From a virus (lineage: Duplodnaviria; Heunggongvirae; Uroviricota; Caudoviricetes): DNA of 14,589 nt. The notes under the pieces were generated by a model. That model worked only from the letters and a program-made list of their open reading frames with translations. It was not told the DNA's origin and searched no databases. The stretch lies in the IMG/VR virus record IMGVR_UViG_2609459801_000008. One strand, given 5' to 3'. A program made the position numbers and the translations under genes. Below are positions 2 through 7,364 of the stretch, one piece after another (the first letter of the stretch is position 1; each line of letters opens with the position of its first letter).

Positions 2-316
2 GACAGGCTCCGGAAGACGGTTGTTGCGCACGTATTCGGTGAACGCACTATGGCGACGCTGGGGCGTCTTATGAGCCTGCTGTCACCCTTTGACGTGGTG
101 ATATGGATGACGGATGGCTGGCCGCTGTATGAATCCCGCCTGAAGGGAAAGCTGCACGTAATCAGCAAGCGATATACGCAGCGAATTGAGCGGCATAACC
201 TGAATCTGAGGCAGCACCTGGCACGGCTGGGACGGAAGTCGCTGTCGTTCTCAAAATCGGTGGAGCTGCATGACAAAGTCATCGGGCATTATCTGAACAT
301 AAAACACTATCAATAA
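2..316 (+). CDS. insB: IS1 transposase InsB, C-terminal portion (5' end outside window)
   Basis: The frame is open from the window edge. The track ORF 50..316 begins at an internal Met; translation from base 2 continues the InsB sequence. Stop TAA at 314-316. Confidence 0.9.
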
Positions 317-331: not shown

Positions 332-2225
332 GTTCACTAGCTCTCTGCTGCTCCCGGGTCTGATATTGTTTTGAAAAGGCATCTGCTCTCTGTCTGAGTT
401 CAATTCCTTCCTGTTGTCGCTTGTTGTAATCGTTTATTGATGAATTTAGTACGTCCTTAGCAATTTTTTCTGCTTGAAGTACGCCCAATTGCTGCTTTAA
501 TCGTGCCAGCCTTTTATTTTGAGCTCCGCCATCTCCAATGCCACCTAACCCGAAAACTCCGGGTCGGGTATTTTTTTCTATTTCATCAATTTGACGGAGA
601 ACATCTGAGATTTTTTGATCAAGGGAGGCCTCACGGCCAATATCCAGCATGGAATCCCATGCCCATTTTGCGGAGTCTGCGACAGCTTTCCATGCAGTCT
701 CAAGATAACCAAGATTTTCTTTAATCTGGTTGGTGCGCTGGATCATTGAGGATGAGTATTCTTCTGTCGCAATGCGGGCGGCCTCCTGCTGGTTCCCTTC
801 ATCCTGTAGCGCCTTAATCTGGTTATAAGTCGCAAGTGTCAGAAAATGGTACTGATCATTAAGTTTTGATATGGCACTGACAGGATCCTTTGCAATTTCA
901 TTGAAGTCATTAACCAGTTGTTCGGTTGATATTCCTGTTACTTCGCTCGTTTTTACTATCGCTGTCGTCACTTGCTCCAGCGAACTGCTCGCTACCTTTC
1001 CCGAACGCACAAGCTGATTTAATACTGCCGCCGCAGCACCAGTTGTCGAATCAGCCGCATTCCCGGCACGTTGAGCTATATCGCCCAATTGCCCGCTGGT
1101 TGTCCCCAACTGATTTCCGGTAAGAATAAGAGATTTATTAAATTCGTCCTGCTCCTGAGAGCCTTTATAGTAAGCCAGTCCTAAGACCCCAACGGCTGCT
1201 GCGGCCAGGGTAAAAGGATTAATTAATCCCAGCACATAAGAACCTACACCTTTGATCGCCGGGCCAATCCCACCGAACATATCTTTTAGCTGGCCGCCCT
1301 GCTGCATTAACACCATAAATGGCGACTGACCAGTGGACAACCCAACAACAATATCCGTCATTTGTGCAGGCAACATGCGCATAGCAAAAGCCGTTTGTTT
1401 TGCCGACATTCCGGTTTTGCTTAATTGTGATTGAGTAACCTCAAGCTCACTCCGCATAGCACGAAGTTTTCCAGAAAGCTCCTCATACATTTCAGGAGAA
1501 AGCATCCCCTTAGCTTTTGCTTCATTGAGCTGTTTCTGTTGTTCTACCAGACGATTAAAAGCAGTTCCGACAGGATCAAGTTGAGCAATCAGACGTTGCA
1601 AAGCAACAACCTGTTCATCATGCGCTTTTGCTGCTTCTCGCTCTGCCTGAGCCTCTCCGGTAAGCTCTCGCCGTGTTTCCTGTATTTTTCGGCTATAATT
1701 CTCAAACTGAGAACCATTTATTTTCCCGGATGCAAACGCAGCATTAAGTTCATCATGCTGTTGTTCAAGATTTCTTAGCGCCGCAGCCAGAGGGTCGATC
1801 TTGTCCAGCATTCTTTGAAAGGCCTGAGCCTGCGCTTCCTGCTGGGCGGCAGCAAGTTTTCCGGCCTTCTCGGCTTCTCTCTGCGCTTGCGCAACCCCGC
1901 TCAATTCCTCTGTGGTTTCATTAAGTTTACGGACAAGAAATTCATATTCTTCTTTATCAATAAGCCCTTTATCGAAAAATTTCTTTAATTCAGAATAGCG
2001 TCGACCGACAGTATCAATTGCGGCACCAACTGGATCAATAGCTGCTTTTAATTTTGCGAGCGCGTTCTTCTCATCTTCTGTTGCCTTAGTCACTTTCCCT
2101 GCGCTATTTGCAGCAGTTTCCCCAGCCTGCGTCATTTTGACTAATGAGGAGGTCAGATTGTCAGCATTATTTTTCGCTCCAGTGCTATCAATAATTATTG
2201 CGAGACGCGAGGTTTGCTCTGCCAT
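327..2225 (-). CDS. Phage tail tape measure protein, 3'-truncated by the IS1 insertion (probably non-functional)
   Basis: 632-aa ORF with ATG at 2225 and SD AGGAG 7 nt upstream. N-terminal half has three ~48-aa coiled-coil repeats ([20 protein letters not shown]… / [20 protein letters not shown]… / [20 protein letters not shown]…) and a Gly-rich hydrophobic segment ([36 protein letters not shown]), both typical of lambda-family tape measure proteins. It follows the chaperone pair. The frame runs to the IS1 boundary and stops inside IS1 (327-329). Confidence 0.85.
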
Positions 2226-2240
2226 TTATTAAAACTCCTG

Positions 2241-2270
2241 ACAACAAAAAACCCACCGCGAAGTGGGTTT
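2241..2270 (-). terminator. Candidate intrinsic terminator just upstream of the tape measure start
   Basis: Minus strand reads AAACCCAC-TTCGCG-GTGGGTTTTTTGTTGT: a stem with a 5-bp GC core, 6-nt loop and U-run. It lies between the chaperone stop (2391) and the tape measure RBS. Confidence 0.45.
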
Positions 2271-2390
2271 CAGGCGACATAATAGTAGATATAGCGATTA
2301 CGAGGCCACGCAATGCTTTTCTCCAGGAGCATCATCGATTTAATTAAAGACACCATCACATCTCTGTAACAGAGTGTACGTAATTAACAA

Positions 2391-3160
2391 CTACACACAC
2401 TGCTCCTGAAAATACTGGTCATCCAGTGCAAAGATCACTGCTTCAAATTCATCGCGCTCAATCAATACCGGATGAGTGGCTAAATATTCATTTATCTCTG
2501 TCAGAGATAAAGGCAAAGGCACCCCAGCCATTCCAGCATAACGTCGGGCACGGGATATTACCGAATAGGCGTACAACAACTCCTTAAGCACCGGGTCTAT
2601 TTCTGGTTCCGGTATCGGTGGCAACCTGAGTTTTTCTCGCTTCCATCTTGCCTTTTCCCCCCTTTCTCCCCCGAACTCCGATAACCACCGCTGGGCAGCT
2701 ATGGCTTTTTTATCGTATCCTGCTTCTGCTGCTCTTTACCCTGGGCGATGCTGGCTGCTTCTGCAAGGATCTGCCAGTACAACTCTGGATTCTGCTTAAG
2801 CAGCGCGATCCCTCGTTCTGCCGTATATTCCAGTGCAACCTCAACACCATTAACCAGTTCACCAACCCCTTTCCAGTCTTTCAGCAGATAACGAGCGGCA
2901 TTATCAATGAGTAAATCATCAACAGAATCCACCTCGGAAACCTTTGAAATATCAAACTCCTTCGTTCCGACGTGCAAACTGGCATCCATTTTCTCAATGT
3001 GGCGACGGATTAATGCATTACGGGAGCGATACTGATCGTTATCGCTGCTTGCCACCAACAGTTTTAACCCGTCTACAGGTTTTAAGTCCTTCATTGGCGT
3101 AAACCAGCGTTCTCCACCAATGATAATTTTCTGATTAAGAATAAACATCCATAACCTCAT
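2391..3160 (-). CDS. Tail assembly chaperone fusion (lambda GT-like) made by programmed -1 frameshift at A_AAA_AAG
   Basis: The -1 frame is open from the slippery site through the track's 77-aa ORF (2391..2624, which starts on TTG and is not an independent gene). Hand translation after the slip gives …KKAIAAQRWLSEFGGERGEKARWKREKLRLPPIPEPEIDPVLKELL… with no stop until 2391. Confidence 0.6.
2699..3160 (-). CDS. Tail assembly chaperone (lambda G-like), zero-frame product
   Basis: 153-aa ORF, ATG at 3160 with SD GGGGGA 8 nt upstream. Sits between major tail protein and tape measure genes. Ends …DTIKKP* with the slippery heptamer in its last codons. Confidence 0.7.
   Translation of the reverse strand: MRLWMFILNQKIIIGGERWFTPMKDLKPVDGLKLLVASSDNDQYRSRNALIRRHIEKMDASLHVGTKEFDISKVSEVDSVDDLLIDNAARYLLKDWKGVGELVNGVEVALEYTAERGIALLKQNPELYWQILAEAASIAQGKEQQKQDTIKKP
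2705..2711 (-). other. Programmed -1 ribosomal frameshift slippery heptamer A_AAA_AAG
   Basis: Minus strand reads GAT ACG ATA AAA AAG CCA TAG. A AAA AAG is the same heptamer used by E. coli dnaX, placed 2 codons before the G stop, matching the conserved G/GT arrangement of long-tailed phages. Confidence 0.6.
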
Positions 3161-3208: not shown

Positions 3209-4171
3209 TCAACTAATCGCCTCAGCACTGGCTTTTGCGATCACGGCAGCCGGGGAATTTTTTTTTCTGGTTATCGTAGGTGCTTCATCTGCTGCGGTAA
3301 TGCTCAATTGAACCTGGATAATGTCGCTATTACCCCCATCAGGCCATTCACCTGACACCTGAACCTTCGGGAAACTGAAAGTGTATGCCCCCTCTCCATT
3401 CGAAAGCGTGAAGCTGAACGGAACTGTTTCTCCAGTCAGTGTTTTACTCCAGATTTCCCACGCGGCTTTAGACCATGAAAGCGTCACCGTACCGGACGGT
3501 GTAAAAGTAGTCGGAATATTTGCTCCTGCATAAGGCGAGCCAGTCCCGATACAACGCTGTGTCTGGAGTTTGTTATCGAACTGAATATCAAAACTGTCGA
3601 TACAAAAACCGTTACCTCCGGCAACACCATTCAGGCTTACTGCTGAAACCTCCTTAAACGAATAACGTAGCTTTCCTGCACTATCCACAGGTTCGCCTTT
3701 GATAAAATTCGTATCATCGGCCTTTGATTCCCAGTCCAGTCCGGCAAAGGTTACGGTCGCTGTAATATCGCCGTCGTTAGGGATCTGCATTTTCCATGAG
3801 CCAACCTGCGCTCCTCTGACGACAGAGGCAATTCCGACATCGGACGCATAGGTCGCCAGAGAAAATGTTATTCGCTCATTCCCCATTGTCAGAGAATCGC
3901 CTGACCATTCCGCGCCGAAACAGGATGCAAGAAAATCATCATGTTGACCCCAGCGAAATTTGGTACCAACATCACCGCCGACATCCACAGTGCCAGGCGT
4001 CGCCCCCTGAGCCATCCGGGAGCCACCAATCTCATTATTTTCGCCTTTATTCTGGGTGGGTTTTACTCCCCAGCTTGTGCGTTTTAATAAACTCCAGTCA
4101 CCACTTGCTGGCGTAGTGCCTGCAACCGTCTCCCGGATAAATGCCGAGATAACCTTTGCACCTGAACTCAC
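3209..4171 (-). CDS. Major tail (tube) protein, assigned by position
   Basis: 320-aa ORF directly upstream of the G/GT pair and tape measure gene. GTG start at 4171 with a strong SD (AGGAGG, 5-nt spacer) and an in-frame stop 4 codons upstream. Gly/Ser/Thr-rich, beta-rich composition. No motif-level identification. Confidence 0.6.
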   Translation of the reverse strand: MSSGAKVISAFIRETVAGTTPASGDWSLLKRTSWGVKPTQNKGENNEIGGSRMAQGATPGTVDVGGDVGTKFRWGQHDDFLASCFGAEWSGDSLTMGNERITFSLATYASDVGIASVVRGAQVGSWKMQIPNDGDITATVTFAGLDWESKADDTNFIKGEPVDSAGKLRYSFKEVSAVSLNGVAGGNGFCIDSFDIQFDNKLQTQRCIGTGSPYAGANIPTTFTPSGTVTLSWSKAAWEIWSKTLTGETVPFSFTLSNGEGAYTFSFPKVQVSGEWPDGGNSDIIQVQLSITAADEAPTITRKKNSPAAVIAKASAEAIS

Positions 4172-4967: not shown

Positions 4968-5351
4968 TTACGCTCTCCTTAACTGGATAGAGTAAACTGA
5001 TGCGGAAGGATCTACACTTGCTGTAATTACCTCGTATCGTTGTAACTGCCTTGATACAGGATCATAAATCTCAATAATATGGTCGACAGCTGGTTTATCC
5101 GTAACCTCGCATACCAGAGCGGTTAATTTAAGGTCACCATGCAAAATATTAATCCCATCAATTCTGCCCAGCTTATAACGTGTCAACACGCCTCGCCCGG
5201 TATAGATTGCGGTGGATTCGCCGCCAGTTTCCGTCACAGGATCCCAGTGCCGGTGCGTAACGTAAGAACCAGAAAAATCACTCACGGCGTCCGCTAAATC
5301 CTCATCAAAAGCAGCGGCAACCTCTGACTGAATCTCTTCACGAAGCCCCAT
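4968..5351 (-). CDS. Head-tail adaptor / joining protein (positional)
   Basis: 127-aa ORF inside the tightly packed connector gene block, with TAATG overlap to the upstream gene. Confidence 0.4.
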   Translation of the reverse strand: MGLREEIQSEVAAAFDEDLADAVSDFSGSYVTHRHWDPVTETGGESTAIYTGRGVLTRYKLGRIDGINILHGDLKLTALVCEVTDKPAVDHIIEIYDPVSRQLQRYEVITASVDPSASVYSIQLRRA

Positions 5352-5746
5352 TATCCCCCCCTCACAACCCTGACTTGTGAGCGACTAAGTCCGTACGGTT
5401 TCAGCAGTGCTATCGCAAGCTGTAAATCGGGTTCAAGCAATGCAGTGCTGTTTGCTGGCAACTCAGAAAATGATTTCGATACACTGACCCCGTCAGCCGA
5501 CACGGCTTTACTGATAACAACGCCAGAATCATTTTTCTGCTGAAACAACTTACCGAATGAGGCAATTCTGGCTGCATATGCTCCCGCAAGTTTTACCTCT
5601 TCCGGAATACGGGATGGGTTAATTTTCAGGTTGAAGCCATTAAGCCAGGCATTAGCCATTAAAACAGCTTTATTTTTAGCGTTCTCACTCGTCCAGGCGT
5701 TCCCAAACGCATTATCAACGTCATCACAGGTCACGTAAGTGATCAT
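5351..5746 (-). CDS. gp6-like head-tail connector protein (tentative)
   Basis: 131-aa ORF, first gene of the connector block. N-terminal pattern (MITYVTCDDVDNAFG…KAVLMANAWL) resembles gp6-type connector proteins. Start overlaps the upstream gene by 23 nt. Confidence 0.4.
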   Translation of the reverse strand: MITYVTCDDVDNAFGNAWTSENAKNKAVLMANAWLNGFNLKINPSRIPEEVKLAGAYAARIASFGKLFQQKNDSGVVISKAVSADGVSVSKSFSELPANSTALLEPDLQLAIALLKPYGLSRSQVRVVRGG

Positions 5747-6443
5747 GTGTTCCGGAATCCAGATACAGCTCGGTCATTCCGCCGCTGTTTTTCTGCGTCT
5801 GTTTCTGCCCTAACTGGACAGCACCGATCGTCATAAACAATTCACCACAGCGACCGAGATTCGTGTACGTATTCACATCCTCGTTAATGCGCCCCATGAA
5901 TGAGAACGGTCGATCAACCGAACAGATAAAGCTGTTCATTGCCTTGCGTTTCACCCACGAAGCATGGCCGCCATTGTCACCAAGAAAATCCCCGCCCTGC
6001 GACATAGCGATGGAAAGAGCAGGTATTGATTCGTAGTACGCCAGCATTTCAGAAAGGATCGCATCCAGTTTCCTTATCGGAAAATAGGCCTGGTCATAGT
6101 TGCGATCCACCCGAAACTGGAACTCGTGATAATCATCATCGAGCTGAATGAAGTATTTACACCCGACCAGTTTTGCCAGGTCGAAACAGGCATTACGGGC
6201 GTAAAAAATTGAGCGGCGGTCACAGAAATTATCGGCTTCGTCAAAACGACTGGCGATATCGGCTTTGGAAAACACCAGCACCTGTTCACCAAATTCAGCC
6301 ATGTACTGATTCCGTGTCTTATCTTCATCATCAACAACGATAAAAATTTTCCCGGTATAGCCAGCACGACGCAACGTCCGGTAAGTCAGAACTTTGTCCG
6401 GTCGCCCGTGAGTCAGAATAAAGGCGCAAAAATCATCACGCAT
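5724..6443 (-). CDS. Hypothetical enzyme-like protein with paired acidic motifs (possible nucleotide-sugar or nucleotidyl transferase fold; function unknown)
   Basis: Track ORF is 5724..6464 (246 aa). I prefer the ATG at 6443 (239 aa, MRDDFCAFILTHGRPDK…) because it has a strong SD (GAGGAGGAGG) and overlaps the ParB-like stop as ATGCGTGA. Alternating hydrophobic strands plus IVVDDED and QLDDDY clusters suggest a Rossmann-like DXD enzyme. Inference only. Confidence 0.5.
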   Translation of the reverse strand: MRDDFCAFILTHGRPDKVLTYRTLRRAGYTGKIFIVVDDEDKTRNQYMAEFGEQVLVFSKADIASRFDEADNFCDRRSIFYARNACFDLAKLVGCKYFIQLDDDYHEFQFRVDRNYDQAYFPIRKLDAILSEMLAYYESIPALSIAMSQGGDFLGDNGGHASWVKRKAMNSFICSVDRPFSFMGRINEDVNTYTNLGRCGELFMTIGAVQLGQKQTQKNSGGMTELYLDSGTHDHLRDL

Positions 6444-7227
6444 ATTCCTCCTCCTCACCACCATGCATGATCTCCACCATGCGCTGCGTCATCCGGACAA
6501 ATCCATTTTCAATAGCCTGCTGATAATCAATGATCACCAGCGCCGACTCCTCGAAAAAACACTGAATTTCAGAGGGGGCGTGAGCGTAATAGTCCGCAAT
6601 TCTGCTGAAATTAAACACCGTGTGACGTTCTGCCGCACACAGGAGGAATTTCTCAATATCAGGCTCAAGGGACGCCGAACGTATCCGGCTGATCAGCTCC
6701 TGAGTTTTCGTATCGTCGTACAGTTCACTGATATCCGGTTTACCGCCCGACGGCTCATAAACAGGCGTATCAATTTTCGTCGTATACGGCTCCTCCTCAT
6801 TTCCTGTACCGGGCAAAACATCCGTCAACAGTTCATCAATTTCTGTCGGGATGAAGCCTGTCAGGGAGACATCAAAATCAGCATTGATTAGGTCCGACAG
6901 GTCCATCCGCAACAGATCTTCATCCCAGCCAGCATTCATCGGCAGGCGATTATCTGCCAGGCGGTACGCCTTTTTCTGCTCATCCGTCAGGCCAGACAGA
7001 ACAATGACCGGAACAGAATCCATTTTGAGCATTTCAGCCGCCATAACACGACCGTGACCCGCAATAATTTCGCCCTTTTCGTCAATCAGCACCGGATTAG
7101 TCCAGCCGAATTGCTTAATACTTTCTACCAGTTGTGCCACCTGCTCAGGGCTGTGCGTCCTGGCGTTGTGCGCATACGGTGACAATTCTTGTAATGGGCG
7201 ATAGACTATCTTTAATTTCTCGCTCAT
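6436..7227 (-). CDS. ynaK: ParB-like nuclease (ParB/Srx N-terminal domain) protein, Rac ynaK-like by synteny
   Basis: 263 aa. N-terminal region has ParB-N features (…VLIDEKGEIIAGHGRVMAA…, a GxxR box), and the C-terminus is an acidic tail (GGEEEEYA). It lies immediately downstream of trkG, as ynaK does in the Rac prophage. ATG at 7227. Confidence 0.7.
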   Translation of the reverse strand: MSEKLKIVYRPLQELSPYAHNARTHSPEQVAQLVESIKQFGWTNPVLIDEKGEIIAGHGRVMAAEMLKMDSVPVIVLSGLTDEQKKAYRLADNRLPMNAGWDEDLLRMDLSDLINADFDVSLTGFIPTEIDELLTDVLPGTGNEEEPYTTKIDTPVYEPSGGKPDISELYDDTKTQELISRIRSASLEPDIEKFLLCAAERHTVFNFSRIADYYAHAPSEIQCFFEESALVIIDYQQAIENGFVRMTQRMVEIMHGGEEEEYA

Positions 7228-7244
7228 ACAGCCTTGCTTTATGA

Positions 7245-7278
7245 ATAAAACGCACCCCAGCAGCCAGTGCTACTGGGG
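7245..7278 (-). terminator. Candidate intrinsic terminator downstream of trkG
   Basis: Inverted repeat CCCCAGCAG-ccagtg-CTACTGGGG (8 of 9 pairs). On the minus strand it is followed by TGCGTTTTATTCAT. Sits between the trkG stop (7365) and the ParB-like start. Confidence 0.45.
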
Positions 7279-7364
7279 ACGGAGGGGTTGCTGGTAAAGT
7301 TAGGTATTGGATCAATGAGTGAGTCAACATAATATTAAACTCACAATTATAAATCAGCCATATA

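Follow-up and report, generated by a model that had tools for sequence, protein, structure and literature searches.

A conserved terminator-like hairpin before the tape-measure gene of a Rac-type prophage and its place in a slot of exchangeable cargo

Introduction

Why does a hairpin with the look of an intrinsic terminator stand directly in front of the ribosome-binding site (RBS) of a phage tape-measure gene, inside what should be one late operon? The question is raised by a stretch of viral DNA of 14,589 nucleotides (IMG/VR record IMGVR_UViG_2609459801_000008, Caudoviricetes), which in its full length is called the window and to which coordinates refer unless stated otherwise. The original prediction for this locus offered two readings. 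The hairpin could be a partial terminator that sets the ratio of tail tube to tape-measure protein and is overridden by Q antitermination, or it could mark a mosaic junction where a tape-measure gene of different origin was joined.

Gene context in the window

The window is a defective prophage of the Rac (lambdoid) type, with the gene order RusA, Q (PF06530), cargo genes, holin, lysozyme, Rz, TrkG, ParB_N, TAGT glycosyltransferase and tail genes. The genes relevant to the hairpin are all encoded on the minus strand and follow one another as tail tube, G chaperone, T extension, a 165-nt gap and the tape-measure gene (Table 1). Chaperone G/GT pairs produced via a -1 frameshift are the usual arrangement of tail genes. 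In the window the -1 frame is open from 2705 to the TAG at 2393..2391, so that the 'chaperone stop' corresponds to the GT stop at 2391. The gap between this stop and the tape-measure start spans 2226..2390, just as the original prediction had it. The hairpin also lies, as expected there, inside a same-strand late region that holds the Q antiterminator gene (PF06530, 13626..13234) along with the genes for lysis and for the tail. As the minus strand carries the Q gene, the terminator at 13133..13114 and the lysis and tail genes alike, the organization is that of a Q-antiterminated lambdoid late operon, in which the late promoter after Q shows only a weak consensus match. The Q gene with a terminator about 100 nt later resembles a late-promoter leader carrying a tR'-like terminator.

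Table 1. Coordinates of the hairpin, its slot and the related genes in the window
Feature	Position	Strand	Remarks
Terminator hairpin	2271..2248	-	5' arm GAAACCCACU, loop UCGC (or UUCGCG), 3' arm GGUGGGUUUU
U-tract UUUUUUGUUGU	2241..2251	-	Read from the sequence
Shine-Dalgarno AGGAG of the tape-measure gene	2235..2239	-	9 nt before the ATG
Spacer between GT stop and hairpin	2272..2390	-	119 nt, GC 39.5%, no credible gene
29-codon ORF, GTG/ATG..MMVSLIKSMMLLEKSIAWPRNRYIYYYVA	2270..2359	-	TGA abuts the hairpin; weak Shine-Dalgarno; read from the sequence
Tail tube gene	4171..3209	-	PF18906
gpG-like tail assembly chaperone	2699..3160	-	ORF 3160..2699
-1 frame 'T' extension of the tail assembly chaperone	2391..2711	-	Slippery A AAA AAG at 2711..2705, stop TAG at 2393..2391; weak PF23812 Phage_TAC_18 match
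Tape-measure gene, N-terminal 632 codons	about 332..2225	-	PF06791 TMP_2; ATG 2225..2223
Q antiterminator gene	13234..13626	-	PF06530, E 2.5e-51
Second strict terminator	13114..13133	-	About 100 nt after the Q stop; tR'-like

At about 331 the right end of an IS1 element truncates the tape-measure gene, the IS1 transposase domain PF03400 (InsB C-terminus) being at 50..316, which makes the prophage a defective one. The window contains no terminase, portal or capsid genes; in particular, the region from the lysis cassette to the tail genes (5351-9436) holds none of these and no protease gene. Since the tape-measure gene is interrupted and no head genes are seen, it is doubtful that the hairpin currently functions in this particular copy. 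In place of the head genes are TrkG (8840..7365), a full-length ParB_N protein (7227..6436) and a TET-associated glycosyltransferase, TAGT (6464..5724), which directly precede the genes leading to the tail terminator gene. The ParB_N and TAGT genes may be the remnant of a DNA-hypermodification module; ynaK of E. coli K-12 is its stub. Just downstream of trkG is a 10-pair hairpin with a weaker T-run (7255-7278 (-), CCCCAGTAGCACTGGCTGCTGGGG TGCGTTTTAT), probably the terminator of this cargo gene. The region between Q and the lysis genes (10321-13078) also carries cargo, namely a Blc-like lipocalin on the opposite strand (12554..13078), a 2-thiouracil desulfurase/DUF1722 protein (12361..11402) and an AraC-family regulator (10908..10321). 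A 56-bp segment of the T coding region (2419-2474) is 100% identical to a stretch inside the 'host specificity protein J' gene of E. coli Z142-3, which may be a recombination scar.

Anatomy of the hairpin, U-tract and RBS

A pattern scan of the window returned the stem-loop at 2271..2248 (-) (GAAACCCACTTCGCGGTGGGTTTT, tail TTGTTGTCAG). Its GC core is formed by CCCAC (2267..2263) pairing with GUGGG (2256..2252), beyond which are one U:G pair and a 4-bp A:U extension. This gives a stem of ten pairs, five of them in the G/C core, with a loop of 4-6 nt and a folding energy of -12.3 kcal/mol. The GC-rich stem and short loop expected of an intrinsic terminator are thereby found on the transcribed strand, and the expected U-tract follows directly 3' of the stem (TTTTTT, 2251..2246). 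The six consecutive U are followed by GUUGU, and the first four of them are able to pair with the A-tract. The original prediction of a terminator-like hairpin on the coding strand, directly 5' of the tape-measure RBS, is thus borne out by the -12.3 kcal/mol stem, the six U and the AGGAG that comes next. Judged by these sequence features, the hairpin and U-run make up an intrinsic (Rho-independent) terminator signal, at which transcription would be expected to end.

The columns of the T-run are invariant among relatives in the junction alignments A2 and A3, and a homologue of the Shine-Dalgarno sequence, (G/T)(C/T)C(C/A)GGAG, is conserved in all their junctions. Two loop alleles are common, differing by a 2-nt indel at window positions 2258-2261: UUCGCG in the window and K-12, and a C(UUCG)G tetraloop in locus L032 and other relatives. 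The length of the U-run varies from 6 to 8 among relatives, and a few copies of the hairpin carry single-base changes that weaken the stem or the U-run.

The hairpin compared with chance and with other sequence-level readings

A loose terminator scan was not enriched over the whole window, with 13 sites against 12.4 expected. Under strict criteria (an uninterrupted stem, dG <= -7 and at least five T in 7 nt), only two sites were found on the 14.6-kb coding strand, the chaperone/tape-measure hairpin (-12.3 kcal/mol) and the site at 13133..13114 after Q. One hundred dinucleotide shuffles of the coding strand gave a mean of 0.66 strict sites, and in only 3% of them was there any site of -12 kcal/mol or below.

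Several other readings of the gap were considered and rejected. Searches for a known RNA family in Rfam gave only sub-threshold chance matches; nothing in the gap reached the gathering threshold, the best match being to positions 138-161 of sroH, its terminator (14.7 bits against a threshold of 80 bits). A structured RNA extending over the whole gap was discarded on an unexceptional fold z-score of -1.67. Sequestration or insulation of the Shine-Dalgarno sequence by the hairpin was evaluated in 48 junctions, where its predicted unpaired probability was 0.46 in the native sequence, against 0.42 when the 5' flanks were shuffled. Because the predicted accessibility shows no systematic effect, the idea that the hairpin hides or uncovers the Shine-Dalgarno sequence was rejected.

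A literal sequence search in a collection of papers returned no match. Published Term-seq data for K-12 have no plus-strand 3' end at 14263xx/14264xx, which is uninformative if the Rac late region is silent, and the TERMITe tables have no 3' end at the K-12 coordinates of the hairpin, a region that is possibly untranscribed.

Conservation and covariation among relatives

A collection of at least about 170 related loci (174), anchored on tape-measure N-termini, was assembled from viral contigs and genomes, with genome contigs contributing at least eight loci; individual loci are designated by L numbers. The sources were genomes of Escherichia, Shigella, Citrobacter, Raoultella and Pantoea, and phage records of Klebsiella and Salmonella. 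The collected loci contain 48 distinct variants of the 70-nt junction, every one of which ends in a hairpin and U-run, and the distance from the end of the stem to the tape-measure ATG is 21-25 nt in all 48. The strict hairpin and U-run test was passed by 44 of the 48 variants, and the other four (L016, L038, L044 and L132) are single-base variants of types that pass. Strict sites outside the slots numbered 16 in 48 representative loci, which total 326 kb with about 38 kb of slot.

Pairing of the stem is kept despite changes in its sequence, as seen in the arm pairs CCCAC/GTGGG, CCCGC/GCGGG, CCCAG/CTGGG, GCCGC/GCGGC, CCGGC/GCCGG, CCTCGC/GCGGGG and CCTCGC/GCGAGG. Thirteen hairpins were used to build a covariance model (R1), which recovers the junction in 46 of the 48 representative loci and has 2241..2272(-) as its sole match in the window. 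The model-based alignment A4 was used for counting pairs because the MAFFT alignment A2 put the 3' arms out of register. In A4, 95.7% of the cells pair and five of eight pairs have changed on both sides, with a covariation score of 0.382 against 0.194 in shuffled controls (0 of 500) and at most 0.13 in slid controls; these figures lean towards structure, because A4 is fitted to the model, and the slid controls are to be read alongside them. We take the hairpin to be real and under selection as a structure.

A slot of variable cargo and its exchange

The distance from the T stop to the tape-measure ATG ranges from 29 to 2,801 nt and includes 87 distinct alleles among the loci collected. No slot allele without the hairpin was found (0 of 87). 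The larger slots contain about 29 unrelated ORF clusters, encoding among others an Ail/Lom outer-membrane protein, a Zn-ribbon membrane protein, at least six lipoprotein families, a KilA-N protein and a YafO toxin. Even the near-empty slots of L077 (39 nt) and L092 (29 nt) still have the terminator hairpin, and in L092 the stop codon of T falls inside the hairpin loop. The type of hairpin mostly follows the cargo gene located at the 3' end of the slot.

Ten representative cargo proteins gave no match to known defence systems in PADLOC. The larger slots of L106, L110, L152 and L094 encode a 260-aa protein, a 131-aa protein that is HEPN-like by eye (RNEADYH) and an oppositely oriented 155-aa gene, and the slot of L076 encodes a toxin of the YafO family (PF13957). 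These genes may be unrecognised defence or toxin-antitoxin cargo.

Three prophages with the Ail/Lom allele were compared with the window across the junction. Their identity to it is 95-100% through the tube gene, G and most of T; the final ~200 nt of T match at 68-76%, and the slot shares no identity. Within the first 100 nt of the tape-measure gene, identity is back to 95-99% in two of the three and is 81% in L070. The close flanks around a differing middle indicate that the exchanged unit consists of the 3' end of T, the slot, the hairpin and the RBS. The mosaic junction of the original prediction therefore holds as a recombination hot spot with a swapped cassette, and the comparison of identity on either side of it does place a break at the T 3' end, slot, hairpin and RBS. 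The tape-measure gene of different origin is not retained, since identity is high on both flanks and returns within that gene.

A module of about 70 nt, TCATATCATTGTC..CTGTGCTAACCTGTGTGCAAATGTTAATGATGGGGATAGGGAT followed by ATG or GTG, stands directly after the T stop in L005 (3387-3456) and in the slots of L083, L118, L119, L123 and L143. It precedes five unrelated cargo families (clusters C0, C1, C6, C16 and C22) at a fixed distance to their start codons. All 38 copies of the module lie in slots, with no further copy in other parts of the loci and none in the window. The module may serve as a common promoter/leader or as a site of recombination. Some alleles with large cargo have a second strong terminator that overlaps the T stop (L081 at ~1216, L083 at ~1102 and L096 at ~2214; e.g. 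AGCCTCGGCACCCGCCGGGGCT), and the cargo in these three loci is thus bracketed by terminators on both sides.

The spacer in the slot of the window

Morons are equipped with a promoter and a terminator of their own, which allow them to be expressed while the prophage is repressed (PMC3594210), and the slot of the window shares several of their properties. It is extra DNA between genes that are adjacent in relatives, as the intervals of 29-39 nt in L092 and L077, 165 nt in the window and 416-2,801 nt elsewhere demonstrate. The signal for a terminator of its own is present at the 3' end in the form of the hairpin. The composition of the spacer is unlike that of the flanking genes (GC 39.5% against 46-50% in the T, tube and tape-measure genes), a modest difference over a short segment. 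What the slot fails to show is a gene; it has only the 29-codon ORF, with a weak Shine-Dalgarno sequence and no homology to other slot cargo, which is probably not a gene, and the smORF supplement of K-12 ribosome profiling contains no entry at its K-12 coordinates. The slot is therefore regarded as an empty or vestigial cassette and not a full moron.

No sigma-70-like promoter was found by scanning the coding strand over 2226-2420, a weak negative because the same scan misses the promoter of HK97 gene 15, a prophage-expressed gene. With neither a recognisable promoter nor a convincing gene in the slot, there is perhaps nothing locally to terminate. The spacer is at least 99% conserved in about 1,045 E. 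coli genomes, with very little sequence variation among its copies, and diverged copies were found in neither E. coli genomes nor phage records. The idea that it is a relic of other slot cargo was rejected, as only chance or T-run matches of 10-15 nt were obtained.

Discussion

The explanation that we favour, with a probability of roughly 0.6, is that the hairpin is an intrinsic terminator forming the fixed 3' boundary of a swappable moron cassette, where it would shield the tape-measure gene and the tail genes beyond it from transcription in the lysogen and would let Q-modified polymerase pass. In a lysogen, ordinary RNA polymerase would arrive after starting at a promoter in the slot, or after reading on from cargo further upstream that the prophage expresses, trkG for example. 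It would stop at the hairpin, leaving the tape-measure and distal tail genes silent. After induction, Q-modified polymerase would pass through the hairpin, and the tape-measure gene would then be translated from its own strong RBS, 21-25 nt downstream. The terminator in the window is the boundary of a cassette that is almost empty.

HK022, the moron-less sister of HK97, has an empty slot with a 19-nt junction lacking a hairpin, whereas the Rac-type slots of 29-39 nt keep one. For this reason the hairpin may have a role of its own beyond ending the moron transcript. Possibly, and we put this forward tentatively, the terminator is a resident, selected element of the phage late operon (an attenuator, an RNA-stability barrier or an insulator) that makes the site a 'safe harbour' for cargo. 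If so, cargo with promoters of its own could be inserted and swapped there while the tail genes stay silenced. A resident terminator would also explain why none of the 87 alleles is without it, why it is kept in the 29-39-nt slots, the compensatory drift of the stem and the contrast with HK022. Should it prove to function in the phage's own expression, the moron model would be refined from one in which each moron brings its terminator to one in which morons dock at a resident terminator. Retention of the terminator without cargo is the sole point that goes beyond textbook knowledge; the rest is mostly an ordinary example of a known design.

Two specific roles in lytic growth would place the hairpin between genes of unequal output, and both appear doubtful. 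As an attenuator, which is the partial terminator of the original prediction, it would end a fixed fraction of late transcripts and lower the tape-measure and tail-tip genes relative to the head, tube and chaperone genes, in the manner of the T7 terminator T-phi after the major capsid gene. Its location at the boundary of high-copy (tube, 4171..3209, and chaperone) and low-copy tail genes, its persistence in the empty slots of L077 and L092 and its presence in every one of the 87 slot alleles were counted in favour, together with HK022, which shows that an empty slot can lack a hairpin. Against attenuation, the window encodes a Q-family antiterminator (PF06530), and lambdoid Q-modified polymerase resists intrinsic terminators, a property ascribed to the Q of the window by analogy. 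If such a polymerase ignores the hairpin, termination cannot set the ratio of tube to tape-measure products in lytic growth. The original prediction, in which Q overrides the hairpin, is at odds with itself on this point. Moreover, the identity of the hairpin follows the 3'-most cargo gene and the swapped cassette, not the lineage of the tape-measure gene. A role in mRNA stability or processing, to which we give similarly little credence, would avoid the conflict with Q. In that case Q-modified polymerase would read through and, once the transcript had been cleaved downstream, the stem-loop would block 3'-to-5' exonucleases so that the tube/chaperone segment outlives the tape-measure/tail-tip segment. 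Such an element agrees with both Q read-through and the hairpins of empty slots, and what is conserved is structure, not sequence. The idea is purely inferential, however, and the U-run, which a terminator needs and an exonuclease barrier does not, is conserved as strictly as the stem; termination is therefore favoured over an exonuclease barrier.

Explanations that look to the window's own slot are less probable. The spacer might itself be a miniature moron that is ended by the hairpin, having its own promoter and, as product, a small RNA or a peptide of 29 aa (2359..2270); we consider this unlikely. The TGA of the ORF abuts the hairpin as in ordinary gene-terminator pairs, the conservation of the spacer (>=99% in ~1,045 E. 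coli genomes) would suit a gene, HK97 gene 15 is also small (62 aa), and the promoter scan is equally blind to the promoter of gene 15. These points are opposed by the weak Shine-Dalgarno sequence, a coding strand without a promoter-like site, an Rfam match confined to the terminator fragment of sroH (14.7 against 80 bits), the missing smORF entry in the K-12 ribosome-profiling supplement and an ordinary overall fold (z -1.67). It is highly improbable that the hairpin is a non-functional relic or a chance structure in a decaying prophage. The prophage is indeed defective, with IS1 cutting its tape-measure gene and no head genes, and the copies in L016, L038, L044 and L132 have weakening single-base changes. 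Yet the hairpin is position-locked, with covariation, in 48 of 48 variants from Escherichia, Shigella, Citrobacter, Raoultella and Pantoea and from Klebsiella and Salmonella phages, and a hairpin of such strength is rare in shuffled sequence (3%).

The fixed boundary of a swappable cassette, as the preferred reading, gives an explanation for an unannotated feature in a very common prophage region of E. coli. The chaperone/tape-measure junction of the Rac-type tail family is a hot spot of cargo exchange for at least 25 unrelated families, mostly envelope proteins of unknown function, and the latter are natural candidates for superinfection exclusion or host-fitness genes.

Comparison with known systems

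Positions 2100-2750 of the window are 100% identical to the ydaY–ynaA (tmpR) junction of the Rac prophage in E. coli K-12. This sequence is present in 1,073 of 5,426 complete E. coli genomes (about a fifth), and also in Salmonella phage SPF_0923 (100%) and a set of vB_EcoS phages (~98%). In K-12 the hairpin corresponds to about 1426408-1426431 (+) of NC_000913.3, whose annotation contains no feature in the ydaY–ynaA gap. The K-12 slot, like that of the window, is a 119-nt spacer without a convincing gene. More has been lost in K-12 than in the window, with ydaY being a C-terminal chaperone fragment and ynaA fused to lomR.

The Ail/Lom allele of E. coli SA31-1 (L004) resembles the window in that its slot ends in a terminator, here 23 nt before the tape-measure ATG. 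It differs in having a slot of 763 nt with the gene for the Ail/Lom outer-membrane protein and a hairpin of another sequence (GGCCCCGCTT..AAGCGGGGC). At the level of the operon, the window is similar to the lambdoid Q-dependent late operons (lambda tR' and moron terminators): a terminator comes after the Q gene, and the late region on that strand contains cargo.

The closest parallel in layout is HK97 (AF069529), where the stop of gp14 is followed by gene 15 ('moron product'), then a 'terminator, putative' (ACCCGCTATCAAGCGGGTTTTTTTT), and the tape-measure ATG 12 nt on. The term moron was first applied to gene 15, which lies between the genes for the tail chaperone and the tape measure (Juhala et al. 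2000, cited in PMC3594210); the product of gene 15 is a superinfection exclusion protein expressed from the prophage (PMC3594210). The tape-measure proteins start differently, with MATLRELI in HK97 and MAEQTSRL in the window, as compared by eye only, and the HK97 slot holds a real gene of 62 aa where the window has the 119-nt spacer. The hairpins are of a similar type, ACCCGC..GCGGG with T8 in HK97 and ACCCAC..GTGGG with T6 in the window. In both, the slot comes after a -1 frameshifted tail chaperone and before the tape-measure gene, and is followed by hairpin, U-run, RBS and ATG in this order. Given this identical layout, the hairpin of the window belongs to the already known design of moron-slot terminators.
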